NCBI RefSeq assembly: GCF_028368995.1
Contig: NZ_JAQNDL010000001.1
Coordinates: forward strand, 4,096,001 to 4,160,000
Direction of reading: 5' to 3'
Length of the DNA: 64,000 nucleotides
Source of the DNA: Nannocystis bainbridge
GTDB lineage: Bacteria; Myxococcota_A; Polyangia; Nannocystales; Nannocystaceae
Position 1 is the stretch's first letter. Every line of letters starts with the position of its first letter. Made by a program: the position numbers and the translations under genes. Below are positions 861 through 59,948 of the stretch, piece by piece. Below the pieces are notes generated by a model. That model saw only the letters and a list, made by a program, of their open reading frames with translations. It was not told the origin of the DNA and searched no databases.

Positions 861-894
861 ACGAGTCACATGTCTTTAAGGACATGTGACTCGT
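861..894. repeat. 14-bp-period CATG decamer array (2 units) forming a perfect 14-bp hairpin
   Basis: ACGAGTCACATGTC-TTTAAG-GACATGTGACTCGT; CATG at 869 and 883; starts 12 nt after the stop at 848. Confidence 0.85.
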
Positions 895-1231
895 ATCGGC
901 CCGTCGCGGCGGCGTATACCGCCGCGCCTGTCCGAGATCGATCGCCCGCGGGCATCACCGATCCGAGCGACGTCGCCCGGAAGCAGCAGGTCGACCGCGC
1001 ATGCCACCGCCGAGATCGTCGCAGGCCGGAGATGCGCGTGACGACACTGGTGCGACCCGGCCGACGTCGGCCGCGAGCGCTCTGCGGGGCCCCATGCAGC
1101 GTCAGCGACGCTCTGTGCGCCCACACGCGCCGGGCCGGCCGTGGGACCGGTCGCGCTGGCCGAGCCCGCGTCGGCCCCCTGCGCTCATGCGCCCGCGGTC
1201 GCGTGCTACGGTTCTTTGGAGGAGGCTCGCG

Positions 1232-1333
1232 ATGAAGAACGACAAGAAGACCCGTCCCTTGACGATCAAGTCCGGCGTGCGCGGCGGCACCAGGCACGAC
1301 ACCATGAAGAACTCGGTCGGCAACATCCGCTGA
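1232..1333 (+). CDS. 33-aa small peptide, putative Gly-Gly leader/core precursor
   Basis: GGAGGAGG RBS at 1218-1225, TGCTACGGT extended -10-like box at 1204-1212, ORF MKNDKKTRPLTIKSGVRGG-TRHDTMKNSVGNIR, and a downstream hairpin. Confidence 0.75.
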   Translation: MKNDKKTRPLTIKSGVRGGTRHDTMKNSVGNIR

Positions 1334-1338
1334 CCAGC

Positions 1339-1378
1339 CGCCCCGGCGTCGCCACGACGGCGACCCGGGGCGCTTCGT
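1339..1378 (+). terminator. GC-rich stem-loop, putative terminator after the small peptide
   Basis: CGCCCCGG-C-GTCGCC-ACGAC-GGCGAC-CCGGGGCG followed by CTTCGT (weak U tract). Confidence 0.55.
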
Positions 1379-1447
1379 ATCGTCCGCCTCGACGCGGCCG
1401 CGGATCTCGGACCGCGTGCGAGCTCGGTCTGTCCCAAAGGCCAGCCC

Positions 1448-2449
1448 GTGAAATGTCCGGTCTGCCACGACCATCCAGGCGTCTCGCGCCATTGCCGGCG
1501 GCGCCTTGACGCATCGCATGAGCTGGGTCAAATTGCGCGTCGTCTGATGTTCTCTCTCGAGCATCCGCGGCTCGCCCAGCCTCCCGGCGCGGACGAGGGC
1601 GTCCGGCGATTGCTGCATGCGGAGCGCACGGGGGTCCTGCGGACCTACGAGCTGCGGCTTCGCGGCAGCACCTTGGTGACGGCGGTGGGTCGGCCCGAGC
1701 GCAGGTTTCCGCTGCGCACCACCGCGACTGTCCGGCCCGCCGCCGCTGTCGCTTACCTCGAGCGGCAGGTCGCGGCTCTGCTGGCGAAGGGTGCTCGCTT
1801 GCTCGCCGACGACGCCGCCTTCCCGGTCATCGACGAGCCGCGCTTCAAGAGCTTGCCCGGCGTCGAGCCCGAGGTCGCCAGCGAGGTCGCGCGCAGCCTG
1901 CGGGCGCACCGGCGCAAGTTCGCCATGCTCGACAAGCTGCAGTGGGCCGCCGGCGACGACTGGGACCTGCTGATCTGGTCGCTCGTGCGGGCCGGCCGCG
2001 TCCAGCCGCACCGCGACGTCGAGCTGTGGTTGCTCCTCGCCGACGCCGCGCTCGAGGGCGACGCCGTCACGGTGATGGATCTGCTCGTCAGGGTCGGCCC
2101 GCTCACCGAGCTCTATCGCGGTCGCGGCTACGACGAATACGCCGAGGCCATCCCCGGCGGCGACGCGGCCACCGAGGCGCTGCTGTGGCACGCCTACCTC
2201 GACGATCGCCGGCACGTGAACGCGCGGGCTGATGTCCTCCCGACGAATCTGCAGCGCGGCCTGTGGCTGATCCGCGCCCGCGCCGGCGAGCCCGTGCCCG
2301 CGGCGGTCGCCGGCGAGCTCGCCGCGTGGCTGCAGGCCCACCCGCGCCCGTTCACCCCGCTCGAGGCGCTCGACGGCGGCGCCTTTGTCCGCCTCGACGT
2401 CCCGGAGCTGTTGCGCCGCATCGAGGCCCTGGCCGAGGGCCCGGCCTGA
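1448..2449 (+). CDS. Hypothetical protein with a degenerate WGR-like segment (start uncertain)
   Basis: 333-aa ORF with coding-like codon bias. RTYELRLRGSTLVTAVGRP...AYLERQVAALLAKG resembles the WGR-domain pattern. Confidence 0.55.
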   Translation: MKCPVCHDHPGVSRHCRRRLDASHELGQIARRLMFSLEHPRLAQPPGADEGVRRLLHAERTGVLRTYELRLRGSTLVTAVGRPERRFPLRTTATVRPAAAVAYLERQVAALLAKGARLLADDAAFPVIDEPRFKSLPGVEPEVASEVARSLRAHRRKFAMLDKLQWAAGDDWDLLIWSLVRAGRVQPHRDVELWLLLADAALEGDAVTVMDLLVRVGPLTELYRGRGYDEYAEAIPGGDAATEALLWHAYLDDRRHVNARADVLPTNLQRGLWLIRARAGEPVPAAVAGELAAWLQAHPRPFTPLEALDGGAFVRLDVPELLRRIEALAEGPA

Positions 2450-8393: not shown

Positions 8394-9371
8394 ATGCAGA
8401 GCCGACCGATCTCCGACTTTATCCGCCGCCATTACCGCCACTTCAACGCGGCGGCGCTCGTCGACGCCGCGACGGCGTACCAGGCCCACCTGGACCGCGG
8501 CGGCAGCATGCTGGTCACCCTCGCCGGCGCCATGAGCACGGCCGAGCTCGGTCTCAGCCTGGCCGAGATGATCCGCCAGGGCAAGGTCACGGCGATCAGC
8601 TGTACCGGCGCCAACCTCGAAGAGGACGTGTTCAACCTCGTCGCGCACGACCACTACGTGCGCGTCCCGCACTACCGCTCGCTCACCGCCCAGGACGAGC
8701 AGGCTCTGCTGGAGCGTCACCTCAACCGCGTCACCGACACCTGCATCCCCGAGATGGAGGCGATGCGGCGCATCGAGACCGCGGTGTTGGCCGAGTGGGA
8801 AGGCGCCGACCGCGCCGGCGAGCGCTTCTTCCCGCACCAGTTCATGTACAAGATCCTGCGCTCGGGTGTCCTGAAGGACAGCTACCAGATCGACCCGAAG
8901 GACAGCTGGCTGATGGCGGCGGCCGAGCGCGACCTGCCGATGTTCGTGCCCGGGTGGGAGGACTCGACGCTCGGCAACATGTACGCCGGCCACGTGATCG
9001 AGGGTCACGTCAAGAACGTGCACACCGTGCGCACCGGCATCGAGTACATGATGGAGCTGGCCAAGTGGTACACGGGCACCTCGGACAAGAGCTCGATCGG
9101 GTTCTTCCAGATCGGTGGTGGCATCGCCGGCGACTTCCCGATCTGCGTGGTGCCGATGCTGCACCAGGACCTGCGCCGCACCGAAGTGCCGCTGTGGGGC
9201 TATTTCTGCCAGATCAGCGACAGCACCACCAGCTATGGCTCGTACTCCGGCGCCGTGCCCAACGAGAAGATCACGTGGGGCAAGCTCGGCGTCGACACTC
9301 CCAACTTCATCATCGAGTCCGACGCGACGATCGTCGCGCCGCTCGTGTTCGCCTACGTCCTGGGCTGGTGA
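8394..9371 (+). CDS. Deoxyhypusine synthase-like protein (probable homospermidine pathway enzyme, SpeY-like)
   Basis: TLAGAMSTAELG, SCTGANLEED, GGGIAGDFPICVVP, YSGAVPNEKITWGK, IESDATIVAP. Confidence 0.9.
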   Translation: MQSRPISDFIRRHYRHFNAAALVDAATAYQAHLDRGGSMLVTLAGAMSTAELGLSLAEMIRQGKVTAISCTGANLEEDVFNLVAHDHYVRVPHYRSLTAQDEQALLERHLNRVTDTCIPEMEAMRRIETAVLAEWEGADRAGERFFPHQFMYKILRSGVLKDSYQIDPKDSWLMAAAERDLPMFVPGWEDSTLGNMYAGHVIEGHVKNVHTVRTGIEYMMELAKWYTGTSDKSSIGFFQIGGGIAGDFPICVVPMLHQDLRRTEVPLWGYFCQISDSTTSYGSYSGAVPNEKITWGKLGVDTPNFIIESDATIVAPLVFAYVLGW

Positions 9372-12901: not shown

Positions 12902-12939
12902 AAACATGCATCTCCAGACATGTCCCCATGGACATGTCC
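12902..12939. repeat. 14-bp-period CATG decamer array (3 units)
   Basis: AAACATGCAT-ctcc-AGACATGTCC-ccat-GGACATGTCC; CATG at 12905, 12919, 12933. Confidence 0.85.
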
Positions 12940-13737: not shown

Positions 13738-13923
13738 AAGCGATCGCGCCCGGCTCGCTCGAGCCGCGGTGCTCGAGATCAAACGGTCGCATCCGCTCCG
13801 GTCGACAAATCAGGATCGCGCCGCCCTGGATCCCGCGCTGTTGGCCGGACCCGGACGATTTCGCGCCTCGCTCTCCTGGCAAATCCGCCTGCTCTCGCCG
13901 CCATCGGGCATGCTGGTGGCGAC

Positions 13924-14850
13924 ATGCCGGTCTCATTCGGCCGCTCCGTGCTCCTGCTCGCCGCGTTCGCCTCCTGCTCGCCGCGGCCGCACGCCTTCGA
14001 GGACAGCGCCGGCGACACCACGGGCTCGCCTGCCACAACGAGCACGAGCACGACCGGCATGCATCTCACTTCCACAAGCGCGGGCGAGCCCACGTCCGGC
14101 ACCTCAGGCGAAGGCACCTCGAGCACCTCCACCAGTGACGACCCCGTCTTCATCGCTCCGCCCGACCTCGGCGACGGCCCGCCGGAGTGCGACCCGTGGG
14201 TGCCCGCATGTCCCGAAGGACAGAAGTGCATGCCGTACTCCGGTGACGGCGACAGCGCCTGGGAGAGCTGGGGCTGCTTTGAAAAAGTCCCCGACCCCGA
14301 CCTGCTCGGCGAGCCGTGCACCAACTTCGGCGACGTCAGCGGCCTCGACTCCTGCGACGCGGGCCACATCTGCTGGGTCACCGAAGCAGAGCCTCCTGGC
14401 AGCACCTGCATCGCCATGTGCACCGGCTCCCCCGAAGCTCCGCAATGCGCCGATCCGCTGACCACCTGCAACATCGCCGCCGATTACGCCGTCATCCTCT
14501 GCCTGCCGATGTGCGACCCGCTGCTGCAAGACTGCAGGGGCACCGACCTGTGCATCCCGAAGTGGCCCTGGACCGAAGCGAGCGAATTCACCTGCGCTCT
14601 GGACGCCAGCGGCGACGAGGGTCAGGTCTTCGACCCGTGCGAGTACGGCAACGAATGTGATCTCGGCCTCCTCTGTCACCCTTCCGCTCTGGCCGACGAG
14701 TGCGACCCGCGGGCCACCGGTTGTTGCCTCCCTTTCTGCGACGTCACCCAGCCGAACAGTTGCCCCGGCGCGGGTCAGGAGTGCGTCTCCTGGTACGAAC
14801 CCGACGCTGCGCCGCCACTCGACGCCATCGGCACCTGCCGCCTGCCCTAG
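13924..14850 (+). CDS. Cys-rich myxobacterial lipoprotein with Thr/Ser stalk
   Basis: Signal peptide with Cys, Thr-rich linker, then repeated CDP..QDC..G.KC / C..G..C modules. Confidence 0.85.
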   Translation: MPVSFGRSVLLLAAFASCSPRPHAFEDSAGDTTGSPATTSTSTTGMHLTSTSAGEPTSGTSGEGTSSTSTSDDPVFIAPPDLGDGPPECDPWVPACPEGQKCMPYSGDGDSAWESWGCFEKVPDPDLLGEPCTNFGDVSGLDSCDAGHICWVTEAEPPGSTCIAMCTGSPEAPQCADPLTTCNIAADYAVILCLPMCDPLLQDCRGTDLCIPKWPWTEASEFTCALDASGDEGQVFDPCEYGNECDLGLLCHPSALADECDPRATGCCLPFCDVTQPNSCPGAGQECVSWYEPDAAPPLDAIGTCRLP

Positions 14851-15845: not shown

Positions 15846-15951
15846 CGACATGACCGAAAGGTCATATCGTATTATCAGAAATTCATATCACGTTCCGATG
15901 GACATGTTCCTTGGTTTATGTCCATCTGGACATGCCCCGAAGGGCATGTCC
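15846..15951. repeat. 14-bp-period CATG decamer arrays (2 + 4 units) between convergent genes
   Basis: Cores at 15849/15863 (ATGACC-GAAA-GGTCAT hairpin) and at 15903, 15917, 15931, 15945. The last pair GGACATGCCC-cgaa-GGGCATGTCC is a perfect inverted repeat. Confidence 0.9.
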
Positions 15952-23099: not shown

Positions 23100-23123
23100 A
23101 GACATGCTCCAAGCGACATGTCT
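23100..23123. repeat. 14-bp-period CATG decamer array (2 units) between convergent genes
   Basis: AGACATGCTC-caag-CGACATGTCT; CATG at 23103 and 23117. Confidence 0.8.
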
Positions 23124-27838: not shown

Positions 27839-29983
27839 ATGGCGCCCGTCGAGCTCACCCATCCGAGTCTCTACATCAATCGCGAGCTCAGCCAGCTCGA
27901 GTTCCACCGCCGCGTGCTCGAGCAGGCGATGGACCCGCGCGTCCCGCTGCTCGAGCGCCTGCGCTTCACCACGATCGTCAGCACCAACCTCGACGAGTTC
28001 TTCGAGGTCCGGGTCGCCAGCATCAAGGAGCAGGTCGGCTTCGGCCTGCCGCAGGTCGGCCCCGACGGCCGGACCCCGCAGGACGCCCTGCGCGCGCTCA
28101 AGGAGCAGGCGCAGAAGCTCGTGCGCGAGCAGTACATGTTCCTGCAGCAGCAACTGCTGCCCGCGCTCGCGGCCGAGGGCATCCGCCTGCTCAAGCTCTA
28201 CACCTGGACCCCGGAGCAGAGCGCCTGGCTCGAGGACTACTTCGACCGCGAGGTCTTGCCGGTGCTCACGCCGATCGGCCTCGACCCGTCGCACCCGTTC
28301 CCCAACATCCAGAACAAGAACCTCAACCTGATCGTCGCCCTCGCCGGCAGCGACGCGTTCGGCCGCGACAGCGGCACCGCGGTGGTGCAGATCCCCCGCA
28401 GCCTGCCGCGCCTGGTGTTCCTGCCGCCCGGCGTCGCCGACTGCCCGCACGGCTACGCCCTGCTCGGCTCGATCGTCACCACCTTCGTCCACAAGCTGTT
28501 CTCCGGCATGCAGGTCCGCGGCTGCTACCAGTTCCGCGTCACCCGCGACAGCGACCTGTGGGTCCAGGAGGAGGACGTCGAGGACCTGCTCAACGCGCTC
28601 AAGGGCGAGCTGCGGACCCGCAACTTCGGCGACGCCGTGCGCCTCGAGGTCAGCGACACCTGCCCGCCCGAGATGGCGGACTTCCTGCTCAGCAAGTTCG
28701 ACCTCCAGCCCGACGACCTGTACCGCGTCGACGGCCCGGTCAACCTCCACCGCCTGGCCGCGATCTACGACGTCATCAAGCGGCCCGAGCTCAAGTACCC
28801 GCCGTTCATCCCCGGGCCGCGGCGCACGCCCGGCGCCGAGGTCGACCTGTTCGCCGAGCTGCGGCGCGGCAACATCCTGCTGCACCACCCGTACGAGAGC
28901 TTCTCGCTGGTGCTCGAGCTGGTGCGCCAGGCCGCGCGCGACCCCAAGGTGCTGGCGATCAAGCAGACGCTCTACCGCACCGGCGCCGACTCGCCGATGG
29001 CCGAGGCGCTGCTCGAGGCGGCCCGCGCCGGCAAGGAGGTCACCGCCGTGGTCGAGCTGCGGGCCCGCTTCGACGAGGCCGCCAACATCGACCTCGCCAC
29101 CCGGCTGCAGCAGGCCGGCGTCACCGTGGTCTACGGCATCGTCGGCTACAAGACCCACGCCAAGGCGTTGCTGATCGTCCGCCGCGAGGACGGCCGCTAC
29201 CGCCGCTACGTCCACCTCGGCACCGGCAACTACCACAGCGTCACCGCCCAGTTTTACACCGACTTCAGCTTCCTCACCTGCGACGACGCGATCGGCGAGG
29301 ACGTGCACAACGTGTTCATGCAGCTCACCGGCCTGGGCAGCGTGCCGCGCATGAACAAGCTGCTCGTCTCGCCGTTCACCCTGATGGACCGGCTGATCGC
29401 CCTGATCGACCGCGAGGCCGACAACGCCCGCCAGGACAAGCCCGCGCGCATCATCGCCAAGCTCAACGCGCTCACCGAGGTCAAGGTCATCGAGGCCCTC
29501 TACCGCGCCTCGCAGGCCGGCGTGTCCATCGACCTGATCGTCCGCGGCGTCTGCTGCCTGCGCCCCGGCGTGCCCGGCGTGTCCGACAACATCCGCGTGC
29601 GCTCGATCGTCGGCCGCTTCCTCGAGCACCACCGCATCTACCACTTCCACAACGCCGGCGACGAGGTCACCTACGGGGCCAGCGCCGACTGGATGTCGCG
29701 CAACCTGCTGCGCCGCGTCGAGACCGCGTTCCCGATCGAGGACCCGGCCCTGCGCGCCCGCGTCGTCACCGAGGCCCTCACGACCTACCTGGCCGACAAC
29801 ACCCAGGCGTGGGAGCTGCAGGCCGACGGCAGCTACGTCCGCTGCTGCCCCACCCCCCCGACCGAAGAGGCCCGCCCGGCCCAGGAGACCCTGCTCCGCC
29901 TGCTGTCGGCCAACCAGGGCGCCGCCCAGGCCCAGCGCCAGATCCTCGAGGACCTGATGGTCCGCCAGGAAATGCTCGAATAG
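27839..29983 (+). CDS. ppk1: Polyphosphate kinase 1
   Basis: YINRELS.LEF, NLDEFFEVRV, LLHHPYESF, IKQTLYRT, ELRARFDEAANI, KTHAK, HLGTGNY, SADWMSRNL. Confidence 0.96.
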   Translation: MAPVELTHPSLYINRELSQLEFHRRVLEQAMDPRVPLLERLRFTTIVSTNLDEFFEVRVASIKEQVGFGLPQVGPDGRTPQDALRALKEQAQKLVREQYMFLQQQLLPALAAEGIRLLKLYTWTPEQSAWLEDYFDREVLPVLTPIGLDPSHPFPNIQNKNLNLIVALAGSDAFGRDSGTAVVQIPRSLPRLVFLPPGVADCPHGYALLGSIVTTFVHKLFSGMQVRGCYQFRVTRDSDLWVQEEDVEDLLNALKGELRTRNFGDAVRLEVSDTCPPEMADFLLSKFDLQPDDLYRVDGPVNLHRLAAIYDVIKRPELKYPPFIPGPRRTPGAEVDLFAELRRGNILLHHPYESFSLVLELVRQAARDPKVLAIKQTLYRTGADSPMAEALLEAARAGKEVTAVVELRARFDEAANIDLATRLQQAGVTVVYGIVGYKTHAKALLIVRREDGRYRRYVHLGTGNYHSVTAQFYTDFSFLTCDDAIGEDVHNVFMQLTGLGSVPRMNKLLVSPFTLMDRLIALIDREADNARQDKPARIIAKLNALTEVKVIEALYRASQAGVSIDLIVRGVCCLRPGVPGVSDNIRVRSIVGRFLEHHRIYHFHNAGDEVTYGASADWMSRNLLRRVETAFPIEDPALRARVVTEALTTYLADNTQAWELQADGSYVRCCPTPPTEEARPAQETLLRLLSANQGAAQAQRQILEDLMVRQEMLE

Positions 29984-30033
29984 GCATGTCCCTCAGGACA
30001 TGCCCCCGGGAGCATGTCCCTTGCGACATGCCC
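29982..30033. repeat. 14-bp-period CATG decamer array (4 units) between convergent genes
   Basis: AGGCATGTCC-ctca-GGACATGCCC-ccgg-GAGCATGTCC-cttg-CGACATGCCC; CATG at 29985, 29999, 30013, 30027. Confidence 0.92.
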
Positions 30034-31129: not shown

Positions 31130-32992
31130 GTGCTCGTCCTCGGCGATCTGCCTGGCCCTGACGCGGCGCCCAAGTCGGCCGTCCTCTCGCGCCTGCTTCA
31201 CGCCGGCCTCCCGGTCCCGCCCGGCCTCGCCGTCGCGCCCGAAGAGCTCGCCGACCCCGACATCCGCCGCCGCCTCCACGCCCTGCTGAGCGGCGGCCCC
31301 GTCATCGTGCGCGCCGCGCTCGCCAGCGAGGACACCGCCGACGCCGCCGCCGCGGGGCTCGGCCTCTCGGTGCCCGACTGCCGCGACCTGGGCGACATCG
31401 ACCGCGCCGCCGCTGCCATCGCCGACGCCGCCCACGACCCCTGGCTGCTGCGCTACAGCGGCGACGTGCCCGCTTACCAGCTGCTCGTCCAGCGCCAGGT
31501 CGAGCGCCGCTGGCTCGCCGTCGCGGCCGCCGATCGCGGCGGCGCCCGCACGCTCGAGCTGCACGACGCCACCCGCCCCGACGCCCTCGCCGCCGGCGCC
31601 AGCCCGACCTGGTCCGGCCCGCTCGCGCTCGCCGAACCCGCGCTCGCCGCTGCCATCACGAGTATCTTCGACCATGTCGCATCGGCCATGTCCGAAGTGC
31701 CAGCCCTCGACCTCGAGCTCGTCGTCGACCCGACCGGCGCCGTGTGGCTGGTCCAGGCCCGCCCGCTCGCGCGCCCGCTCGTGCCCGGGTGGCCGGAGTT
31801 CTGCGCCGCCGTCGCCCCCGACCAGGACCACATCCCCGGCCTGCCCGGCCTGTGGCGGCTGGACGGCGAGCACAACCCGGCCGCGCTCTCGCCCGCGCAC
31901 GCCGGCGTGATCGCCTGGCTCATCGGCCAGGGATCCAGCCTGCGCGTCCTCGGCGGCTGGCTTTACGAGCGCGCCGCGTCCTCCGGCCGCACCGCCGCCA
32001 TCGACCCCCACCACGCGCTCGCCGAGCTGCGCCAGCGTCATCTCCCGGGCGCCCGTCGGGCCCTCGAGGGCTTCGTCGCCGGGCTCGCCGGAGATCTGCG
32101 CCCGCTGCTCGCCCGCGCGCTCGAGCACCTGCGTGCCATCCTCGTCGTTCACGGCGAAGTCCGCGTCGAGCTCCCGCGCGACCTCCCGCCCCCCGACCCG
32201 CAGGCCCTGCTGTCGCTCGACGGTCGCGGCGACTACCTCGACGTCCTGCCCGCTGCCTGGGACATCGCCAGCCCGGCGCTCGCCGACCTGTTCGATCGGT
32301 CATGTCTCGAGGGACATCCTGACGGGGCGTCGATCGAGCAGGCGACCTCGTCCTCCGCCGTCCGCGAGATCGTCCCCGCCGACCCGCAGCGAGCCGCGGT
32401 CCTGGTGCGCGAGCTCGACGATCACCTGTTCGCGCTCGGCCTGGCCCCGCTGCGGCGGATCTACCTCGCTGCGGGCGAACGCCTCGGGCTCGGCGCCGAC
32501 GTCTTCCTGCTCGCCCCCGACGAGCTGGACCACGCGCTCGCCGGCCGCGACCTGCCTGATCTCGCCGCACGCCGGCACCAGCAGCAGTACTTCGTCGCGC
32601 TGCGACCACCCCCGGCGCTTTACGACGGCCGGCCCGTGCCGCTCTCGCCGCGACGGCGGTGGAGCGGGATCGCCGTCGGCCCGCCGGTGCGCGGCCGCGT
32701 CGCCCTTCGCAGCGACCTCGCCGACCTGCTCGCCCGCCCGCCCGAGCCCGACGCCGTCGTCGTCTTGCCGGCGCTCACCGCTCAGGCCGCGGTCGCCTTG
32801 CGAGCGCTCGGCGTGCGCGCCGTCTGCTGCGAGTACGGCGGCGCGCTCAGCCACGCCGCCTTGATGGCCCGCGAGCTCGGCCTGTCGGCGCTGATCGGCT
32901 GCGCCGGCTGCAGCGAGCTCGCCGATGGCAGCACCGTCGAGCTCGACACCCGCGCCGGTCGCCTCCGCCTTGCCCCCAAGGACATGTCCTGA
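31130..32992 (+). CDS. PEP-utilising enzyme family protein (degenerate ATP-grasp + His swivel domain; rifampin-phosphotransferase-like layout)
   Basis: GLPVPPG, VIVRAALASED..AAG, LVQARP, C-terminal EYGGALSHAALMARELG. The GTG start is preceded by TGCTACAGT. Confidence 0.75.
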   Translation: MLVLGDLPGPDAAPKSAVLSRLLHAGLPVPPGLAVAPEELADPDIRRRLHALLSGGPVIVRAALASEDTADAAAAGLGLSVPDCRDLGDIDRAAAAIADAAHDPWLLRYSGDVPAYQLLVQRQVERRWLAVAAADRGGARTLELHDATRPDALAAGASPTWSGPLALAEPALAAAITSIFDHVASAMSEVPALDLELVVDPTGAVWLVQARPLARPLVPGWPEFCAAVAPDQDHIPGLPGLWRLDGEHNPAALSPAHAGVIAWLIGQGSSLRVLGGWLYERAASSGRTAAIDPHHALAELRQRHLPGARRALEGFVAGLAGDLRPLLARALEHLRAILVVHGEVRVELPRDLPPPDPQALLSLDGRGDYLDVLPAAWDIASPALADLFDRSCLEGHPDGASIEQATSSSAVREIVPADPQRAAVLVRELDDHLFALGLAPLRRIYLAAGERLGLGADVFLLAPDELDHALAGRDLPDLAARRHQQQYFVALRPPPALYDGRPVPLSPRRRWSGIAVGPPVRGRVALRSDLADLLARPPEPDAVVVLPALTAQAAVALRALGVRAVCCEYGGALSHAALMARELGLSALIGCAGCSELADGSTVELDTRAGRLRLAPKDMS

Positions 32993-33003
32993 AGGACAGA
33001 TCG
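32966..33003. repeat. 14-bp-period decamer array overlapping the stop codon at a convergent junction
   Basis: Cores CTTG 32969, CATG 32983 (GGACATGTCC), CAGA 32997. Confidence 0.7.
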
Positions 33004-39828: not shown

Positions 39829-39870
39829 TTCAGGACATGCTCTCATGAGCATGTCCTGAAGCGCATGTCA
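39829..39870. repeat. 14-bp-period CATG array (3 units) with a perfect 14-bp hairpin
   Basis: TTCAGGACATGCTC-TCAT-GAGCATGTCCTGAA; CATG at 39836, 39850, 39864. Confidence 0.9.
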
Positions 39871-39950: not shown

Positions 39951-39988
39951 CTACATGTCCCGAATGACATGTCCTGAAGACCCTGCGG
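39951..39988. repeat. 14-bp-period CATG array (2-3 units)
   Basis: CATG at 39954 and 39968, CCTG at 39982. Confidence 0.75.
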
Positions 39989-41430: not shown

Positions 41431-41454
41431 GGACCTGTCCCAAGGGACCTGTCA
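41431..41454. repeat. Variant 14-bp-period array (CCTG cores) in a divergent intergenic region
   Basis: GGACCTGTCC-caag-GGACCTGTCA. Confidence 0.7.
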
Positions 41455-42676: not shown

Positions 42677-42728
42677 GGACATGCTCGTAAGAACATGCCC
42701 CTTCGAGCATGCCCTTTCGAGCATGCCC
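42677..42728. repeat. 14-bp-period CATG decamer array (4 units) between convergent genes
   Basis: GGACATGCTC-gtaa-GAACATGCCC-cttc-GAGCATGCCC-tttc-GAGCATGCCC. Confidence 0.92.
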
Positions 42729-45453: not shown

Positions 45454-46818
<1,365 letters not shown>

Positions 46819-46844
46819 CGATCGCCGCGCCAGGAACCTGTCCG

Positions 46845-48575
<1,731 letters not shown>

Positions 48576-48577
48576 CC

Positions 48578-50977: not shown

Positions 50978-51101
50978 GACTCCAAGTTGTAACAGAACGA
51001 AGGGTCGTCGCAAGATCTGTTAGCGCGCGCAACGCGCGCGGAACTGCTCCGACCCTTGTAGAAGCAACGAGCGGCGGCGCCAGCGAGTCGCGGACGCCCG
51101 C

Positions 51102-51689: not shown

Positions 51690-51973
51690 CGCTCCTCCTC
51701 CCCAGAGCTCCCTCGACCTCGAGGCAGCTTTCTGTGACCGCAGCAGTTTGCCACGGAGCGCGGGGCTCTTGTCGATCTGGCTCAGAGCATGCGGCGTCGC
51801 TCGACGCGCGCGCCGTCGCTCCCGCGGGGCGTCGCTCGTCGATCGGACGTCACCCTCGCTCGCCGCGGCTCCTCTTCGCGGGCATGACCGCGGGTGCAGC
51901 CGTACGCCGTAACCCGGCGGCTCGTTCGCGGCGCCGCGACGGCCTGACGCCGTTCAGCGGCGGGGCGGCGGGC

Positions 51974-53293: not shown

Positions 53294-53552
53294 GACTCGA
53301 AGGGCTAGGAAGACGACGCGGGGCTCCGAGCGCGTCCTGTGGCTAGAAAGGCAGCCTAGACCATCGGCGCGGGCGTATCAACTGTTCGACGGGCGCAGCC
53401 GGTCGGGCCCGCCGGATCGCCCTCGTTCGCGCAGATCCGCCCGCGTTCGAGCGCTGCACGGCCTCGTCCTCGATCAACCGCGTTCACCACCAACGCGACG
53501 TCACGCCGTCACATGGCCCATGCGCCATGCGAAAAAACGGCGGCGACCGACG

Positions 53553-53837
53553 CTACGTGTAGCGGAGCGCGCAGCGGGTCTCTTCACCGTCGACCCTGAA
53601 GACGAGCCGACAGTCGGGCCGCTCGCGCTCGCAGATCGTGCCGCCGATCGCCGCGGGTCGACCCTCGGGGTCCATGACGGTCTGCACCTCAATGCTGACG
53701 CCGAAGGTCTGCTCGAGCGATCGCACCCACGTCATGTAGTCGTGCGAACAGTTGGGATCGCGCGTCAACAAGGCGCTGCTGCGCTGCGCGATCAGGTTGA
53801 CCAGATGCGTGTAACGGCGAGGGTTGTTAGCGATCAC
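53553..53837 (-). CDS. Small hypothetical protein
   Basis: 94-aa ORF with a GGAG RBS upstream of the GTG and protein-like composition. Confidence 0.55.
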   Translation of the reverse strand: MIANNPRRYTHLVNLIAQRSSALLTRDPNCSHDYMTWVRSLEQTFGVSIEVQTVMDPEGRPAAIGGTICERERPDCRLVFRVDGEETRCALRYT

Positions 53838-53977
53838 GACACCGAACTCCAGGTGTTCCGCCAGGGGGGGACGAAAATCTTACTATGGGCCGGAAGGCGC
53901 GATCCATCCATCGCGCCAGGTCGAGGCCGAGAATCGGTGTATCCCAGATCGCAAAATTCGGCGCGGCGCGCCGACCG

Positions 53978-55204
53978 TCAGGGGCTACCCGTCGGCGCCA
54001 TCAGCTCTGATCCAGCGGACGGGTGTCCGAGTGGGAGGCGGCGGCAGTACACACCACGATCCCAGATCGTGTTGTGCGAGGCGACGCAGACGACGCCGCT
54101 GCGCCAGTCGACGGCGAGGCCGCCCGCCTGAACCCGCTCCAATCCCAGCGCAGTCCACGTCGCGCCGCCGTCGTCGCTGGCCCAGATACCCTCTCCCCAG
54201 GACCCGGCGATCACCCGCGACCCATCAGCGGGATCGGGGACCATCACCCGCATGTCCGACACCGGCGGCGTCCTCGGCTCGAACAGCCGACCGGGCGGCG
54301 CGACCCGGAGATCGGTCGACCAGATGTTGCCGTGACGCGCGTAGCGCCAGCCGCCAGCGACGGCCCCGTAGAAATATACGATCGCTTCGGGCGCCGGCTC
54401 CGAGAGCCACTCCCCCGCTTCGCCTTCGCGCGACCACCACGCCGTGCCGAGCGCCACGGCGGTCCCTCCGCCGAGCGCGACGGTGTGGACCCGGCCTTCG
54501 AACTGTTCTTCGGACCATGTCCCTTTGGCCATGTCGAGACGGTGCAGCGCGCCGTCGACGACCGCGAAGAGCTCGCTCGCGCCGACGGCCAGGCTCCTCA
54601 GCTCGCCGGGCGGCCGGCCGAGCGAGCGCCACCGCCCCGTGGCCGGATCGCGCTGATCGAGCCGCGCCGTGCCGCGCGGGGCGGTCCATAGCGTGCCGTC
54701 GGGCGCGGCACAAAACTCCCAGGCGTCCCCGCCAGGGGGGCCGCCGAGGTCACGCCAACCGTCGTCGCCGTGAGCCCACACGTTGCCGCCGCCAGCTTGC
54801 ACGACGAAGCCGTCGACCGACGAGAAGACGATCCGCGGACTATTCCACTCCTCGCTGCCCGCCAGCAAGGTCCACGACGGATCGATCGGACGCGCCCAGG
54901 CGACGACGCCCCAGACGCCGGCGACGAGGTGCGAGAGGATGGCGAGTCGCACGATCACCCATCGCAGCCTCGCTGGCGTCCACGCGAAAAGATCATCCAG
55001 CGCGCCGACGTCGAACCACACGCCGAGGGCCGCGAACAACACGGCCATCACGGGGATCCCCGACAACGCCCACCACGGCGCGATCAACAAGACCGCGCCG
55101 ATGAACGCGAGCATGACGTACGAACCCAGGCGATACCCGCCGACGGCCGCCCGCACGAGGATGCGTCCCACGTCCACGACCCGAGGATGCCACAGCGAGC
55201 CCAT
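53978..55204 (-). CDS. Membrane-anchored beta-propeller (BNR/sialidase-like repeat) protein, start uncertain
   Basis: N-terminal TM helices; Trp-rich repeats and an Asp-box SDDGGATW. Confidence 0.7.
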   Translation of the reverse strand: MGSLWHPRVVDVGRILVRAAVGGYRLGSYVMLAFIGAVLLIAPWWALSGIPVMAVLFAALGVWFDVGALDDLFAWTPARLRWVIVRLAILSHLVAGVWGVVAWARPIDPSWTLLAGSEEWNSPRIVFSSVDGFVVQAGGGNVWAHGDDGWRDLGGPPGGDAWEFCAAPDGTLWTAPRGTARLDQRDPATGRWRSLGRPPGELRSLAVGASELFAVVDGALHRLDMAKGTWSEEQFEGRVHTVALGGGTAVALGTAWWSREGEAGEWLSEPAPEAIVYFYGAVAGGWRYARHGNIWSTDLRVAPPGRLFEPRTPPVSDMRVMVPDPADGSRVIAGSWGEGIWASDDGGATWTALGLERVQAGGLAVDWRSGVVCVASHNTIWDRGVYCRRLPLGHPSAGSELMAPTGSP

Positions 55205-55420
55205 CGGCCGGGAGGGGCGAAATCCGGCCTCGCGCACGGGTTCGCATCCGAGGCGAAGCCCGAGCCCCGACTTCCGACCTCCGTACATCGCGTCTGCTCG
55301 AGGTCGGGTCGCGTGAATGAATAATCGGCGCGAGCGAGGCTCGCTCGTTCATTGACACAAGGTCTTTGGTTCTGAAGCGCGTCCGGTCCGTGCGAGGTCG
55401 GGTGCCGTTAACTTGAGACC

Positions 55421-56209
55421 ATGTTCGAGCACTATCTGCACCAACACGCCCCCGATCGTCGTCGTCGTCTGCGCCTGGTGGTGGCGGCTCACCTCGCGGC
55501 GCTCGCCACCGTCGGGGCGCTCGGCTTCACCTGGCTCATGGGCAAGCTGCAGATCGCTCAGGTCGCGCCGCCGAACGCCAACTTCGTGCTCGTGCAGATG
55601 ACGCTCGACACCCCGCTGCCGCCGCCTCCGCTGCCGCCCGCGCCCGCCCGCGCCGAGCCCGAGGACAAGGTCGTGCCGGAGGAGCCGAAGCCCGACGACC
55701 AGCCGCCCGAGGACTTCACCGAGCTGCTCCCGCCGCCCCGGCCGCGACCTGGTCCGGTGGGCAACGGCGCGCCCACGGCCACCGGCACCGCGCCCATCGG
55801 TGTGCCCGGCGTGAGCAACGGGATCCCCGGCGTCACCGGCCTCCCGCCCGGCTTCGCCACTCCCACCCTCGCCGCCCCGCGCCAACCGAAGGGCGAGCAG
55901 CGAGCCCCGGTGCCGCTCGACGCCGTGCGCGCCCAGGCCGTCTACAACCCGAACCCGGCCCAGGAGCGGCTCGCGGCCACTCGCGCCGGCATGTTCGACA
56001 AGCGCCCCGGCGAGAACGAGACCGCGTTCTGCGTCGACGCCACCGGACGCACCACGGAGATCCGCACGATCAAGGCGTTCCCCGGCGACCCGGGCGTCGA
56101 CGAGGTGATCCGCTCGACGATCAAGACCTGGCGGTTCCGCCCGTTCATGGTCGAGGGCAAGGCGATCAAGACCTGTACCTCGCAGCAATTCCGCATCACA
56201 TTCAAATAA
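55421..56209 (+). CDS. TonB-like energy transducer (TM, Pro-rich linker, TonB C-terminal-like domain)
   Basis: N-terminal TM with His (AAHL), Pro-rich spacer, FCVDATG...IKTWRFRP..EGKAI. Confidence 0.8.
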   Translation: MFEHYLHQHAPDRRRRLRLVVAAHLAALATVGALGFTWLMGKLQIAQVAPPNANFVLVQMTLDTPLPPPPLPPAPARAEPEDKVVPEEPKPDDQPPEDFTELLPPPRPRPGPVGNGAPTATGTAPIGVPGVSNGIPGVTGLPPGFATPTLAAPRQPKGEQRAPVPLDAVRAQAVYNPNPAQERLAATRAGMFDKRPGENETAFCVDATGRTTEIRTIKAFPGDPGVDEVIRSTIKTWRFRPFMVEGKAIKTCTSQQFRITFK

Positions 56210-56272
56210 TGTGTCCCGAAGGGCATGCTCTCCAGAGCATGTCCTTCAGAACATGTTCGATGGAGCATGCCA
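56207..56272. repeat. 14-bp-period CATG decamer array (4 + 1 units) filling a convergent gap
   Basis: GGGCATGCTC-tcca-GAGCATGTCC-ttca-GAACATGTTC-gatg-GAGCATGCCA; CATG at 56224, 56238, 56252, 56266, plus TGTG at 56210. Confidence 0.92.
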
Positions 56273-56273
56273 C

Positions 56274-57401
56274 TCAGGGCAGGCCAATCGGCGCGCCGCT
56301 GATGCCGACCGGGAGGCGGTAGAGGTCGCCCGGGTTACCCGACAGGTACAGGCTCTCGGGGTCCCAGCCGGCGCCCCAGCCGAACTGCGCGTTGGCGACG
56401 TTGCTGTCGAACTCGGCCAGTTGCTCGGGCGCGCCGACGAGCGCGGCGTCGGCGTCGAGGATCCCGCGGAACAGGCGGCTGTTGCCCTGGTCGACGGCGT
56501 AGACGTTGCCGCACTTGTCGAGCACCAGGCCGTCGAGCGCGGCCCCCGGGACGGTGAGGACCTCGGACGGCTCACCGGCCGCGTCGCCGGCGTCGTCGAC
56601 GGCGAGCTTCAGCACCCGGCCGGCGCCGTAGTTGGTGAAGAACAGCAGGCCGCGCGCCGCGTCGAGCACCACGCCGTTGGCGGTCGAGGCCATCGGCCCC
56701 TCGTAGACGGTGGTCTTGGTGAAGCGACCGTCGAAGCGGACCACCCGGCCGCCGCCGAACTCGGTGAGCCACACGCGGCCGGTCGGATCGACGTAGAGGC
56801 CGTTGGGGCTGGCGAGGCCGCCGGCGGCGTCGTCGACCGTGCCGTCGCTGGCGATCGTCTGCAGATCACCCGACTGCGGCAGCGCCACCAGCAGCGCGCC
56901 GCCGGGGGCGAAGCGCGTGCCGTAGATCTGCGGGAAGCCGCTCGCAAGCTCCGTCTCGAGCAGCTCCGCGGTGACGATCACCACCGCGTCGTCGCGCTTG
57001 AGCGCGAGCCCGCCGGCGCCGTCGAACCCGAGGTCCTCGCTGCCGTCGAAGCCCTCGGCGACCAGCTCGGGCGCGAACGGCCCGGGCGCGATCGTCACGC
57101 AGTCGAGCTCCTCGCCGGTCGTCTCTTCGCTGGTCGTCGACGAGGTCCCGGGCTCGGTCGTCGAAGTCGTCGCCTCGGTGGTCGTGAGCGAGGTCGTCGG
57201 CGGATCGCCGGTGGTGTCCTCCGAGGTCCCGGTGGTCGTGTCGGTGGTCGACGTCGTGTCGGTGGTCGAAGTCGCGTCCGTGGTGGTCGGATCGGTCGTC
57301 GAGGTGGTGTCCGCGGTGGTCTGGCTGCCGTTGTCGCCGCAGGCGGGGACGAACGACGCGAGGGTCAGCGAGATCGCAAGGGTAGGTGCGCGCGAGGCCA
57401 T
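56274..57401 (-). CDS. SMP-30/gluconolactonase-family lipoprotein with Thr stalk
   Basis: VPAC lipobox, SEDLGFD, PNGL, ANGVVLD, DGLVLDKCGNVY, ANAQFG. Confidence 0.82.
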   Translation of the reverse strand: MASRAPTLAISLTLASFVPACGDNGSQTTADTTSTTDPTTTDATSTTDTTSTTDTTTGTSEDTTGDPPTTSLTTTEATTSTTEPGTSSTTSEETTGEELDCVTIAPGPFAPELVAEGFDGSEDLGFDGAGGLALKRDDAVVIVTAELLETELASGFPQIYGTRFAPGGALLVALPQSGDLQTIASDGTVDDAAGGLASPNGLYVDPTGRVWLTEFGGGRVVRFDGRFTKTTVYEGPMASTANGVVLDAARGLLFFTNYGAGRVLKLAVDDAGDAAGEPSEVLTVPGAALDGLVLDKCGNVYAVDQGNSRLFRGILDADAALVGAPEQLAEFDSNVANAQFGWGAGWDPESLYLSGNPGDLYRLPVGISGAPIGLP

Positions 57402-57411
57402 GGCCCGCACG

Positions 57412-59115
57412 CTATCGCGTCGTGACCAGGCTCGCCAGACTGCGGCCGTCGACCTGCGGCGGCGTGATACCGAGGAGCTCGGCCAGCGTCGGCGCGACGT
57501 CGACGGTGCCGACCGGCTCGGCGAGCGTCTTCGCCACCACCGGGCCGCCGAAGAACAGCACCGGCACGTGCGTGTCGTAGCGGTACGGCGAGCCGTGGCT
57601 GGTGCCCGTCGGGTAGCTCGCGGCCAGCGTCCACTCCTTGAAGCGCAGGGTCACGTCGGGGCTGCGCGCGGGGAAGAAGCTGCGGCGATAGCGTTCGAGG
57701 AACTCGGACGCGCCGGTGTCGGGGGCGGTGCCGGACAGCAGGTCGGCGGTGAACACCTCGGCGACAAAATCGAGTCCGGCCAGCTGCTTGCCCACCGCCG
57801 CGCGCAGCTCGGGGGCCGCGATCCCCTTGGCCTCGGCAGCGGCGACGTCGAGCCACACCCCGGTCTCGCCGATGTCGAGCAGGACCTCGGGCGGCAGGCC
57901 GAGCGCCTTGGTGGCGAGGCCGACCTGGCGCGTGACCTGGGCCTTATAGTCGGCCATGACGACGCGGCGGGCGTCCTTCTGCTGGCCCGACTGGACCAGC
58001 AGCTCGGGGATGGGGATCGCGCCGTGATCGGCGGTGAGGGCGAGCACGTAATTGCCGGCGCCGACGTGTTTGTCGAGCGCGCGCAGGAACACGTCGAGGT
58101 AGCCGTCGAGGCGCATGTAGTAGTCCTGGGCCTCGTGGCTCATCGGCCCGTAGCGGTGACCGACGTAGTCGGCGCTCGAGCAGCTGACGAGCAAGATGTC
58201 GGGGTCGGCGTCGACGCCGAGCTGCTCCTCTTCGAGCAGGCGCTGGGCGAACGCCAGCGTCAGCTCGTCGCCGAACGGGGTCCACTGCAGCTCCTTGAGG
58301 AAGGCCTCGCGCGCCTGTGGGCCGCCGTCGTCGAACACGTGCGGCAATTCGGTGTGCACGCGGTCGGCCTCGAACTCGACCTTGTCGGCGCCCGAGCGGG
58401 CGTACACGTCGGGCTCGCGCAGCCGCTGCCAGCCCTCGGCGAACCGGCGGAACACATTGGTCTCGCCGTTGAACTCGGCCACCCACGCCGGCAGCGCCTC
58501 GCCGTACCAGCTCGACGACACGTAGCCGGCCGCCGCCGGGTCGAACCAGTAGGCGCGGTCGGGGTGCTGCCCGCCCATCATCACGCTCGCGCGGTCCTTG
58601 AAGGCGACCGAGAACACCCTGGCCTTCGGGACCTGTCCCTTGAGCCAGTCGCCGATCGCCGGGCGCATCAGCTGCTCCGGCGAGCGGCCGTCGGGCGAGC
58701 CCGCGCGCGGGCCCGAGGCGGTGATGCGCGCGTCCTTGTCGTCGGCGGCGTAGGCCTTCTTGCGGACGGAGCGGTCGTACCACTCGTTCTCGATGATGCC
58801 GTGGCGGCTCGGGTGGGTCGCGGTCGCCGCGCTGGCGTGGCCGGGCGCGGTGAAGGTCAGCGCGTGCTGCAGGTGCCCCTCTTCGAACAGCGCGCCCTGC
58901 TGGCGCAAGCGGGCCAGGCCGCCGGTATAGAGGTCGGCGTAGCGCGACAGGTAGTCGGCGCGCATCTGGTCGACGACCAGCAGGACCACCAGACGCGGCC
59001 GTGACTCGCCCCGGGGGGCCTCGGGCGCGTGAACTTTCGCGTCGCTGCCCGATTCGCGCGTACACGCCGCGAGCAGGGCGAGGGCGACGGTCCACGAGAG
59101 TTTCGCTGCGGACAT
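57412..59115 (-). CDS. Alkaline phosphatase superfamily lipoprotein (PafA-like)
   Basis: VVDQMRADY, TAPGHA, SVAFKDRAS, DYVGHRYGP, LTADHG, HGSPYRYDTHVP. Confidence 0.9.
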   Translation of the reverse strand: MSAAKLSWTVALALLAACTRESGSDAKVHAPEAPRGESRPRLVVLLVVDQMRADYLSRYADLYTGGLARLRQQGALFEEGHLQHALTFTAPGHASAATATHPSRHGIIENEWYDRSVRKKAYAADDKDARITASGPRAGSPDGRSPEQLMRPAIGDWLKGQVPKARVFSVAFKDRASVMMGGQHPDRAYWFDPAAAGYVSSSWYGEALPAWVAEFNGETNVFRRFAEGWQRLREPDVYARSGADKVEFEADRVHTELPHVFDDGGPQAREAFLKELQWTPFGDELTLAFAQRLLEEEQLGVDADPDILLVSCSSADYVGHRYGPMSHEAQDYYMRLDGYLDVFLRALDKHVGAGNYVLALTADHGAIPIPELLVQSGQQKDARRVVMADYKAQVTRQVGLATKALGLPPEVLLDIGETGVWLDVAAAEAKGIAAPELRAAVGKQLAGLDFVAEVFTADLLSGTAPDTGASEFLERYRRSFFPARSPDVTLRFKEWTLAASYPTGTSHGSPYRYDTHVPVLFFGGPVVAKTLAEPVGTVDVAPTLAELLGITPPQVDGRSLASLVTTR

Positions 59116-59172
59116 GCGGCGGCAGATCTACGCCCGTTCGCGGTCAGGGTCCAGGTGTGAGCCAGGCACCGA

Positions 59173-59201
59173 TTGACAGCCCCAGGTCGCCCTTTCACAC
59201 T
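59173..59201 (+). promoter_or_regulatory. Sigma70-like promoter, leaderless
   Basis: TTGACA-N17-CACACT-N7-ATG(59209). Confidence 0.6.
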
Positions 59202-59208
59202 CCGCGCC

Positions 59209-59874
59209 ATGCACGTCCGTCACGCGATCCTCGCCTCGCTCCTCGGATGCACCGTCGTCGCCTGTCAGGGCGGCGCCGCTGCCCCCGCCGCCCAGCCCGC
59301 CGCCGAGGCGGCGAAGGTCGCCGACCCGGCCAAGACCGCCGAGCCGCCGAAGGCCGAAGACAAGGTCGCCGTCGCCGACAAGCACGAGGCCGAAGAGGGC
59401 TGCGTCTACGCCGGCCAGCACAAGGAAGGCCACGACGACGAGGCCGACTGCCCGCACGGCGGCGCCGAGGGCACCCCTAACTCCGGCGAGCCGGGCCACT
59501 TCGGCGCCGCGTTCGCGCTCAAGGACGCCAAGCCGCTCGGCCCGATCCTCGCCGCCGGCAAGGACGCCCTGCCCAAGGACGCCGTCCAGATCAGCGGCAC
59601 CGTCGACAGCGTGTGCCAGAAGAAGGGCTGCTGGATGGTCGTGAAGGACGGCGACCAGGAGGCCCGCATCCTCATGAAGGACCACGGCTTCACCGTGCCG
59701 ATGGACACCAAGGGCAAGCCCGTGTTCGTCGAGGGCACCCTCGAGGCCCGCACCTTCACCGAGGCCCAGGTCAAGCACCTCGAGAAGGACGCCGGCAAGG
59801 ACCCGGCCGCCGCCTCGGGCGAGCGCACCGAGTACGTGCTCACCGCCTCGGGCGTGAAGATCCAGAACAGCTGA
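59209..59874 (+). CDS. DUF4920-domain lipoprotein
   Basis: VVAC lipobox; G.V..VCQKKGCWM, KDHGFTVP, KHLEKDAGK, ASGV. Confidence 0.85.
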   Translation: MHVRHAILASLLGCTVVACQGGAAAPAAQPAAEAAKVADPAKTAEPPKAEDKVAVADKHEAEEGCVYAGQHKEGHDDEADCPHGGAEGTPNSGEPGHFGAAFALKDAKPLGPILAAGKDALPKDAVQISGTVDSVCQKKGCWMVVKDGDQEARILMKDHGFTVPMDTKGKPVFVEGTLEARTFTEAQVKHLEKDAGKDPAAASGERTEYVLTASGVKIQNS

Positions 59875-59882
59875 GCCGCGCG

Positions 59883-59948
59883 CGTCCTGCTCGTCAGGAC
59901 ATGTCGCAACGCTCATGCCCGAAGGGCCATGTCCGCGAGGACATGGCC
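59883..59948. repeat. 14-bp-period CATG decamer array (4 + 1 units) between convergent genes
   Basis: CCTG at 59886; CATG at 59900, 59914, 59928, 59942. GGCCATGTCC-gcga-GGACATGGCC is a perfect hairpin with a GNRA loop. Confidence 0.92.

Follow-up and report, generated by a model that had tools for sequence, protein, structure and literature searches.

Phased rows of a 14-bp palindromic module just behind genes in Nannocystis-type myxobacteria: a seemingly undescribed family

Bidirectional intrinsic terminators at convergent genes are dyad-symmetric and usable from either strand; they have no sequence in common and need a U-tract. Tandem operator arrays, such as the met-boxes of MetJ, the heptads of omega and the iterons of ParR, occupy single loci at promoters or plasmid centromeres and have periods of 7-11 bp. 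HIP1 of cyanobacteria and the DNA uptake sequences DUS and USS are lineage-specific exact words that occur genome-wide and inside genes in all frames, with no phased lattice; DUS and USS also form inverted pairs behind genes. Repetitive extragenic palindromic (REP) sequences and bacterial interspersed mosaic elements (BIMEs) are reported to have roles at both the DNA and the RNA level, and BIMEs bind gyrase and IHF. The accessible text of PMC3116915 describes REPs as imperfect palindromes of about 20-60 bp, highly identical and with a master sequence, with doublets at family-specific distances, for example 71 or 110 bp, and with a REP-associated tyrosine transposase (RAYT) adjacent. The nucleoid protein CdbA of Myxococcus xanthus has more than 500 sequence-preferring sites that are enriched in intergenic DNA, according to the accessible text of PMC7156744. 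In this study we describe, in a 64,000-nt stretch of the Nannocystis bainbridge genome (contig NZ_JAQNDL010000001.1, positions 4,096,001 to 4,160,000; hereafter the window, numbered from its first letter) and in related genomes, a family of short 14-bp palindromic modules that stand in phased rows just after stop codons and that seem to be undescribed. The arrays suggest that some factor might read them to mark gene ends.

A 14-bp, two-fold-symmetric TGYYY-N4-RRRCA (R, purine; Y, pyrimidine) centred on its spacer describes the repeating module better than does the CATG-centred decamer RRRCATGYYY by which an initial annotation of the window had defined the unit, because inner half-units survive at array ends and single TGYYY-N4-RRRCA modules are enriched. 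Abutting modules share a CA/TG joint and thus form (RRRCATGYYY-N4)n with an exact 14-bp period. Where the next phased unit would stand beyond an array end, the inner half is retained (G.62, G.54, C.73, A.51) and the outer half has background composition, a pattern that persists more than 40 nt from any coding sequence (CDS). TGYYY-N4-RRRCA occurs 26 times in the window versus 2.18 expected, and outside CDS, in the window and the matched loci described below, 35 times versus at most 3 for any other spacing. Within the units CATG is 95-99% invariant. G makes up 79%, 67% and 46% of positions 1-3 with nearly all of the remainder being A, and positions 8-10 mirror this with pyrimidines, the flanks of CATG being constrained at the purine/pyrimidine (R/Y) level only. 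The 4-nt spacer is variable (many different 4-mers) and relatively A+T-rich; its first position avoids A and its last one T. Lone modules tend to extend to cCTGTCC-N4-GGACAGg. The decamer resembles the p53 half-site consensus, which we take to be a coincidence.

The window, with a G+C content of about 70%, contains RRRCATGYYY 23 times versus 2.46 +/- 1.60 (largest 7) in 100 dinucleotide shuffles. Pairs among its 260 CATG sites stand 14 bp apart 24 times, 28 bp apart 13 times and 42 bp apart 6 times, with at most 5 pairs at each other distance up to 100 bp. Among units with no more than one mismatch, 17 have a neighbour at +14, against a mean of 0.02 (maximum 1) in 100 block shuffles, and the other offsets from 10 to 30 are all empty except 28 (10 cases) and 27 (one case). 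Chance or artefact as the source of the motif is ruled out by these dinucleotide- and block-shuffle counts. The initial annotation had claimed a strict 14-bp spacing, which these numbers bear out, and every position that it quoted as an example was recovered; its estimate of about 20 loci was too generous. We defined a strict array as at least two consecutive units, each with at most one mismatch, and found 9 such arrays and about 6 weaker extras (866/880, 13906/13920, 32971-32998, 39951/39965, 41431/41445 and 15900). Three further cases (17884, 31670 and 54513) match by spacing alone, are intragenic and have C at unit position 3, the one at 17884 falling within a 6-phosphogluconolactonase Pfam domain.

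The family extends well beyond this window. A scan for a three-unit pattern in one genome per species (185,579 species) returned at least 83 matched stretches, which we number with the prefix L. Among the 83 matches listed, 81 come from seven assemblies (Nannocystis pusilla, N. exedens, N. punicea, N. radixulma, N. sp. RBIL2, a Nannocystis metagenome-assembled genome (MAG) and a Nannocystaceae MAG), and among these listed matches the module family is almost confined to Nannocystis/Nannocystaceae. The remaining two (L030 1987-2070 and L032 1676-1740; Nonomuraea candida and a Lysobacterales MAG) are unrelated simple repeats, since they consist of perfect tandem copies of a single 14-mer. Listed matches on the complete N. 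punicea chromosome spread over 1.1 to 13.0 Mb, hence the family is dispersed. In the 83 listed loci CATG pairs occur 329 times at 14 bp versus 6 times at 13 and 5 times at 15. In the 2-kb flanks, a sample free of selection for the motif, there are 56 pairs at 14, 18 at 28, 22 at 42 and 12 at 56, with 3 each at 13 and 15. The spike at 14, 28 and 42 bp that had been anticipated for the genome is therefore present in the window and in unselected DNA of other genomes, and the relatives, whose survey had been suggested as a check, carry the family throughout the lineage. The 357 kb of unselected DNA hold 41 strict arrays (about 0.115 per kb or one per 9 kb), a density that implies an order of a thousand arrays per 12-Mb genome.

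Genes were called by our own heuristic, based on G+C content at third and second codon positions (GC3/GC2), and the junction classes given here depend on these calls. The 134 strict arrays in the window and loci are distributed over convergent (80), co-directional (33) and divergent junctions (2), gene interiors (10) and locus edges (9). Junctions not selected for the motif carry an array in 9 of 16 convergent, 9 of 75 co-directional (at least 20 bp long) and 1 of 54 divergent cases and in none of 47 junctions shorter than 20 bp (Fisher's test: convergent versus divergent 1.6e-6, convergent versus co-directional 3e-4), so the concentration at convergent gene ends noted initially also holds in an unselected sample. 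In the window 8 of 10 convergent junctions carry the motif by the GC3-based calls, the same number as in the initial annotation and with the identical two exceptions (2450-2454 and 50580-51101); junction 32993-33036 counts with one full unit. The unit nearest to a stop codon lies at a median of 21 nt, with a mode of 6-18 nt. Stop codons favour motif-compatible phases, TGA for example providing the TG of a terminal half-unit, and many convergent junctions of 39-100 bp contain little besides the array. The arrays and modules of the window are as follows.

861..894: two-unit element, CATG at 869 and 883; 15-bp perfect inverted repeat with a 4-nt centre (-25.2 kcal/mol, z -7.0), beginning 13 nt past the stop codon of a gene whose end lies at 848.
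12902..12939: three-unit array, 9 nt past the stop of gene 12281-12892 in a co-directional junction; the next start is 102 nt further.
13906..13929: weak two-unit element (1 and 2 mismatches), immediately 5' of the start at 13924.
15900..15951: units at 15900, 15928 and 15942 and a degenerate one at 15914, within convergent junction 15828-15967; the array terminates 16 nt short of the stop codon of a gnd-like gene on the minus strand.
23100..23123: two-unit array in convergent junction 23075-23169.
29968..30033: five-unit array occupying all of convergent junction 29984-30043 and overlapping the polyphosphate kinase stop codon.
32971..32998: two abutting TGYYY-N4-RRRCA modules, that is one full GGACATGTCC unit with a half-unit on each side, spanning the stop codon at 32992; convergent junction 32993-33036.
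39833..39870: two strict units and one weak unit in convergent junction 39795-40043; the stem reaches 15 bp.
39951..39974: second, weaker two-unit element, likewise in convergent junction 39795-40043.
41431..41454: weak CCTG-variant pair in divergent junction 41347-41515, the sole divergent case in the window.
42677..42728: four-unit array, 11 nt off the stop of a minus-strand Ser/Thr kinase gene; convergent junction 42455-42739.
46834..46857: two-unit element lying in the 41 bp that separate the co-directional biotin carboxylase-like and carboxyltransferase genes.
56212..56281: four strict units (56221-56272) with a half-unit at either end, filling the whole 64-bp convergent junction 56210-56273.
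59888..59948: half-unit and four units (59897, 59911, 59925 and 59939; 1-2 mismatches each) in convergent junction 59875-59961.
8867..8880: single TGTCC-N4-GGACA module, intragenic, in a deoxyhypusine synthase Pfam domain.
Starts at 13227, 14209, 15165, 20626, 32303 and 36979: other intragenic single modules.

The 698 bp at 849-1546, 3' of the hairpin at 861-894, have no confident gene call, and the initial annotation may have taken them as a convergent junction. In the array-less convergent junction 50580-51101 a different long inverted repeat stands at 50603-50682 (stem of about 27 bp, -47.7 kcal/mol) with TTAAAAAATA ahead of it. The genes recognised in a Pfam scan of the 53 window proteins are of an ordinary chromosomal kind, among them zwf, pgl, gnd, ppk and parts of acetyl-CoA carboxylase. 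Three window genes encode proteins of the nucleic-acid-binding kind: an HU-type DNA-binding protein of 141 aa with a C-terminal extension (33040-33462), a lysine-rich histone H1-like protein (51105-51689; match to HC2 weak and below cut-off) and a small RNA-binding protein of the RRM type (36589-36891); no evidence ties any of them to the arrays. None of the 53 proteins scanned is a transposase, of the Y1 or any other type, in agreement with the initial annotation. The motif had also been called possibly undescribed, and this still stands: both strands of the window gave no match at gathering score to the 4227 models of Rfam, and full-text searches for palindromic repeats and terminators of Nannocystis or Myxococcota and for the decamer found no published description of the element.

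How do the arrays change over time? Same-junction arrays could be aligned via their flanking genes in five pairs, L012/L046 (84% identity), L014/L073 (87%), L022/L069 (94.6%), L021/L043 (67%) and window 42677-42728 with L040 of Nannocystis sp. RBIL2 (73%). In each orthologous pair phase and CATG are preserved and unit number and spacer letters have changed; all pairs were found through their arrays, so that they are biased towards persistence and do not give its frequency. Orthologues of window genes among the loci, searched with tblastn, were distant matches only (46-58% identity). Compared with N. radixulma, N. exedens carries about 220 additional bp beside a tRNA gene (L014 2040-2277 versus L073 2053-2069); they include a duplicated part of the tRNA 3' end and a second three-unit array and resemble a scar left by integration at the tRNA. 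The family has no master copy: 329 of 334 unit-spacer-unit 24-mers are distinct, 2 are common to different loci versus 1.09 expected, and no 38-mer is common, in a sparse sample of about 10-20 loci per genome. Neighbouring spacers are alike above chance (1.28 of 4 letters versus 1.10, z=4.05), and signs of slippage are seen in L046 with four identical units and in L020 with a duplicated two-unit block. Units and spacers nevertheless differ within arrays, as had been argued initially against simple slippage of identical units. Although the spacers are near-scrambled, 13- and 15-bp steps are only about 3% as common as 14-bp steps. If units duplicate first and diverge by point mutation afterwards, this would point to selection on the phase itself.

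TGYYY-N4-RRRCA is also found within genes. In 320 kb of coding DNA from the window and loci there are 45 modules outside arrays, whereas control spacings of the same codon phase give 2 (N1), 2 (N7) and 1 (N10), an enrichment of about 20-fold; the CATG-centred decamer is enriched just about 2-fold in CDS (23 versus 7-14 at phase-matched spacings). The 45 modules use the three frames 12, 15 and 18 times, and 20 of them are exactly TGTCC..GGACA. Five of the 45 belong to one repetitive gene (L066 3007-3110), where they follow each other at non-14 spacing within a 21- to 27-bp period; by blastn the repeat of this gene is common to L005 and L064. Among the 29 single modules in complete genes, 14 fall within the first 18% of gene length (for example window 8867-8880, 13227-13240 and 20626-20639), and either start codons were called too far upstream, these being 5'-UTR (untranslated region) or promoter sites, or the 5' bias is genuine. 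Divergent junctions hold five single modules. Strict arrays inside genes (10 of 134) include arrays of 2-5 units at L060 3096-3147, L050 1743-1780, L004 1285-1308 and L001 2882-2947. Pfam supports four of five host genes scanned (L060, L050, L004 and L018; none for L001), with the arrays placed in a short-chain fatty acid transporter domain (L060), in the linker of an NtrC-like activator (L050) and in a homocysteine S-methyltransferase (L004); GC3 is high on both sides in the same frame and dips within the array. Two adjacent hypothetical genes of the window without Pfam match, 13924-14850 and 14928-15827, are probably paralogues, because CGAAGGACAGAAGTGCA, which includes a module, is common to both. 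They lie in a slightly lower-GC bin at 12-16 kb, and upstream of them an AAA_21/AbiEii-like fragment (11333-12247) lies in a lower-GC bin at 8-12 kb.

What could the arrays be for? CATG stays invariant over hundreds of independent loci in seven assemblies in a family that has no master copy, an argument that the sequence is read by something. Two-fold symmetry of the site, an exact period, half-site ends and the lack of arm-to-arm covariation, all of which we find here as in operator arrays, are best fitted by a dimeric reader of double-stranded DNA. We therefore tentatively favour the reading, quite possible although short of probable, that gene ends are bounded by a lineage-specific, two-fold-symmetric DNA-binding factor, which would polymerise along the 14-bp lattice. 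The simplest candidate for such a lineage-specific reader would be a DNA-binding protein that sits as one dimer on every 14-bp module. From one dimer to the next the orientation would turn by about +120 degrees, three dimers covering 42 bp or four helical turns, and rows of 2-6 sites might load cooperatively into a stable complex directly behind the coding region. Such a complex could serve as an orientation-independent gene-end boundary that would halt or hold RNA polymerase from either side, as roadblock termination or as insulation of convergent transcription. Alternatively, the boundary might recruit supercoil-handling enzymes where positive supercoils accumulate. Transcribed arrays would also have to fold into strong hairpins, which possibly adds 3'-end protection. 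The initial annotation had proposed a dimeric protein lattice with nucleoid, supercoiling or termination roles, a mechanism that is plausible: strict phase, free spacers, conservation at the R/Y level, half-unit ends and intragenic modules are consistent with it, and the observation on which it was built is confirmed and extended to the genus. More doubtful, in our opinion, is the stronger version, in which a dedicated, sequence-specific Nannocystaceae architectural protein would polymerise on phased palindromes just behind stop codons. Each chromosome would then have about a thousand gene-end boundaries that work in both directions and that, where genes converge, terminate transcription as roadblocks and/or take up supercoils. 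The single sites inside and near gene starts might then be a second, weaker tier. If this were true, it would amount to protein-DNA punctuation across a whole genome, for which no bacterial example has been described. CdbA can be ruled out as a candidate reader, as its motif in the accessible text of PMC7156744 is a direct repeat and not a CATG palindrome.

Several observations weigh against a purely double-stranded lattice. Spacers two apart are reverse-complementary to each other (1.39 versus 1.10 matches of 4, z=5.97), which is not seen above chance for spacers one, three or four apart and which is expected from two-unit hairpins and not from one dimer per 14 bp. Two-unit arrays have 3.94 +/- 0.24 Watson-Crick pairs of 6 versus 3.37 for random unit pairs, and some stems extend to 15 bp. 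On the sense strand of the 33 co-directional arrays G.U exceeds A.C (112 versus 67; per-array sign-flip p=0.027), an excess that speaks for pairing within the transcript. In convergent arrays the two are balanced (221 versus 231). Like the lag-2 complementarity of the spacers, this is one of several weaker signals that point to single-strand pairing. For co-directional arrays the median distance is 17 nt to the stop upstream and 214 nt to the following start, a spacing typical of a 3'-UTR element, so that a DNA site would need a reason for such placement. Furthermore, the junction classes hang on our gene calls, persistence at orthologous junctions carries the bias noted above, and one repetitive gene contributes five of the intragenic modules.

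The spacer complementarity, the extra pairs of two-unit arrays, the G.U excess and the position of co-directional arrays also speak for an element that acts as an RNA or single-stranded DNA hairpin, REP/BIME-like, terminator-like or blocking exonucleases in the 3' UTRs of both convergent transcripts, a close rival that we regard as possible but rather unlikely. The R/Y code would then mean that a unit pairs with any partner, and arrays would grow and shrink through 14-bp slippage, of which neighbour-spacer similarity and the identical units of L046 give evidence. Any two neighbours can fold on either strand into a 10-bp stem with a 4-nt loop, because every unit is self-complementary at the R/Y level. 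Folding of the window arrays on both strands yields -25 to -54 kcal/mol (z -4 to -8) in nine cases out of ten, the exception being 23090-23135 (z -1.07). Stop-proximal placement and the nearly empty divergent junctions would be expected as well. Canonical hairpin-plus-T-run terminators in 1-40000 are near chance, so another end signal would be needed. The R/Y pattern alone yields about -9.8 kcal/mol for two units and -27.7 kcal/mol for four. However, real arrays fold no better than R/Y-preserving shuffles (z -0.36 to +0.09). Whether a position holds A or G depends hardly at all on the other positions of the unit (phi -0.10 to 0.11) or on the neighbouring unit, and neighbouring units form 3.3-3.8 Watson-Crick pairs of 6 versus 3.37 for random unit pairs. 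Hairpin covariation of neighbouring units was set aside as weak: pairing is at the random level except in two-unit arrays, and the energy matches the R/Y-preserving null. Hairpin stability leaves the genus-wide invariant CATG unexplained, as it does the length of the linkers between hairpins, exactly 4 nt just as in the loops. In 122 of 334 spacers the first and fourth positions are complementary, versus 96.2 expected (p=0.0025; A..T just 3 times), in keeping with a spacer-centred module; were they to pair in a hairpin, the loop left would have an impossible 2 nt. Operator chains of 2, 3, 4, 5 and 6 number 15, 23, 23, 31 and 2, with no clear preference for even numbers, and no global nested symmetry (spacer i with spacer n-i) appears beyond the lag-2 signal. 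The roughly 20-fold enrichment of single modules with 5-bp arms in all frames, and arrays inside conserved domains, have no obvious 3'-end logic.

A T-run follows only two array-linked sites in 1-60000, 39862-39827 on the minus strand and 32985-32998 on the plus strand, and none appears in base composition after the last unit. Spacers and downstream flanks of co-directional arrays have no T>A or G>C skew, and their spacers show no purine/pyrimidine or A/T strand asymmetry. The scan for terminator-like structures in 40001-60000 returned 19 matches versus 5.5 expected, away from gene ends and mostly TCTTCTTC-type tails in coding DNA, for example antisense of the lysine-rich gene 51105-51689. A reading as Rho utilization (rut)-like sites was dismissed by reasoning, the arrays being G-rich and highly structured. 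The DNA-level lattice and the RNA-level hairpin cannot be separated from sequence alone; they are compatible and not exclusive.

It seems improbable that the arrays are REPINs with a RAYT, or mobile DNA of another non-autonomous type, which a single-copy transposase elsewhere would spread and which would be tolerated only behind genes. Like REP sequences in the accessible text of PMC3116915 they are extragenic, palindromic, promoter-avoiding and high in copy number, of the order of a thousand at about 0.115 arrays per kb, and REPINs are also reported to persist vertically for long. However, they have no master sequence, their unit measures 10-14 bp versus the 20-60 bp given there for REPs, and what is conserved is the pattern and not the sequence. 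Arrays hold the same junction across species, 10 of 134 arrays and 45 single modules are intragenic, and the proteins of the window, in which alone transposases were searched for, include none. About as improbable is a functionless by-product, slippage-prone minisatellites that arose from chance palindromes and were sharpened by quasi-palindrome correction in replication: spacer similarity between neighbours, identical-unit runs, varying unit number between orthologues and the independent origin of similar perfect 14-bp tandem repeats in Nonomuraea and a Lysobacterales MAG would suit it, but the motif recurs at independent loci in seven assemblies, at 9 of 16 convergent versus 1 of 54 divergent junctions, with R/Y and CATG constraint kept while spacers are scrambled and with indels almost absent (6 at 13 and 5 at 15 versus 329 at 14) despite near-random spacers.

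Transcription ending and interference between convergent genes are poorly understood in very large GC-rich genomes, and U-tract terminators are scarce here. Since one simple grammar marks more than half of the sampled convergent junctions in a whole genus, the question becomes directly testable. The array is also a cheap gene-end marker for the annotation of Nannocystaceae, and it offers a clean case of a cis-element that is conserved as a pattern of CATG, R/Y and phase while its letters turn over.

In conclusion, the family works most like REP/BIME elements and bidirectional terminators, and it fails defining tests of both. As the accessible text of PMC3116915 describes for REPs, BIMEs and REPINs, it is short, palindromic, mostly extragenic, present in hundreds of copies or more, often clustered and hairpin-forming in ssDNA or mRNA; like them it is also vertically inherited over long times. 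Of the REP size range given there only the two-unit piece (24 bp) falls inside, the unit measuring 10 bp and the module 14 bp. Unlike REPs, the module is conserved as CATG and an R/Y pattern only and is set on an exact 14-bp lattice, its copies are not near-identical (329 of 334 24-mers distinct), arrays and single modules also occur within genes (10 of 134 and 45), and no RAYT is found among the 53 window proteins. With bidirectional terminators it shares dyad symmetry, a tail-to-tail location near both stops and use from either strand, and a GC-rich hairpin right after the gene is present (-25 to -54 kcal/mol in 9 of 10; median 21 nt). A U-tract after the stem, which defines intrinsic terminators, is confined to the two array-linked T-run sites in 1-60000, and the core here is an invariant CATG with a fixed period. 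Simple tandem repeats or minisatellites would consist of like head-to-tail copies, whereas perfect repeats occur only in the two listed matches from outside Nannocystis. The GC-rich direct repeat with 4-bp separation that CdbA prefers also differs from the array, and the accessible text of PMC7156744 reports no 3'-end or convergent bias for its sites.

The rows resemble operator rows of cooperative repressors, in which 2-10 short symmetric boxes follow each other at an exact period without a gap and are read by contacting dimers. Unlike the arrays of MetJ, omega and ParR, those described here lie behind genes, have a 14-bp period and would number of the order of a thousand loci. Like HIP1 and DUS/USS, finally, the module is a lineage-specific short motif in genome-wide excess that includes coding DNA in all frames, whereas it differs from them in being R/Y-degenerate and in standing in head-to-tail rows phased at 14 bp.

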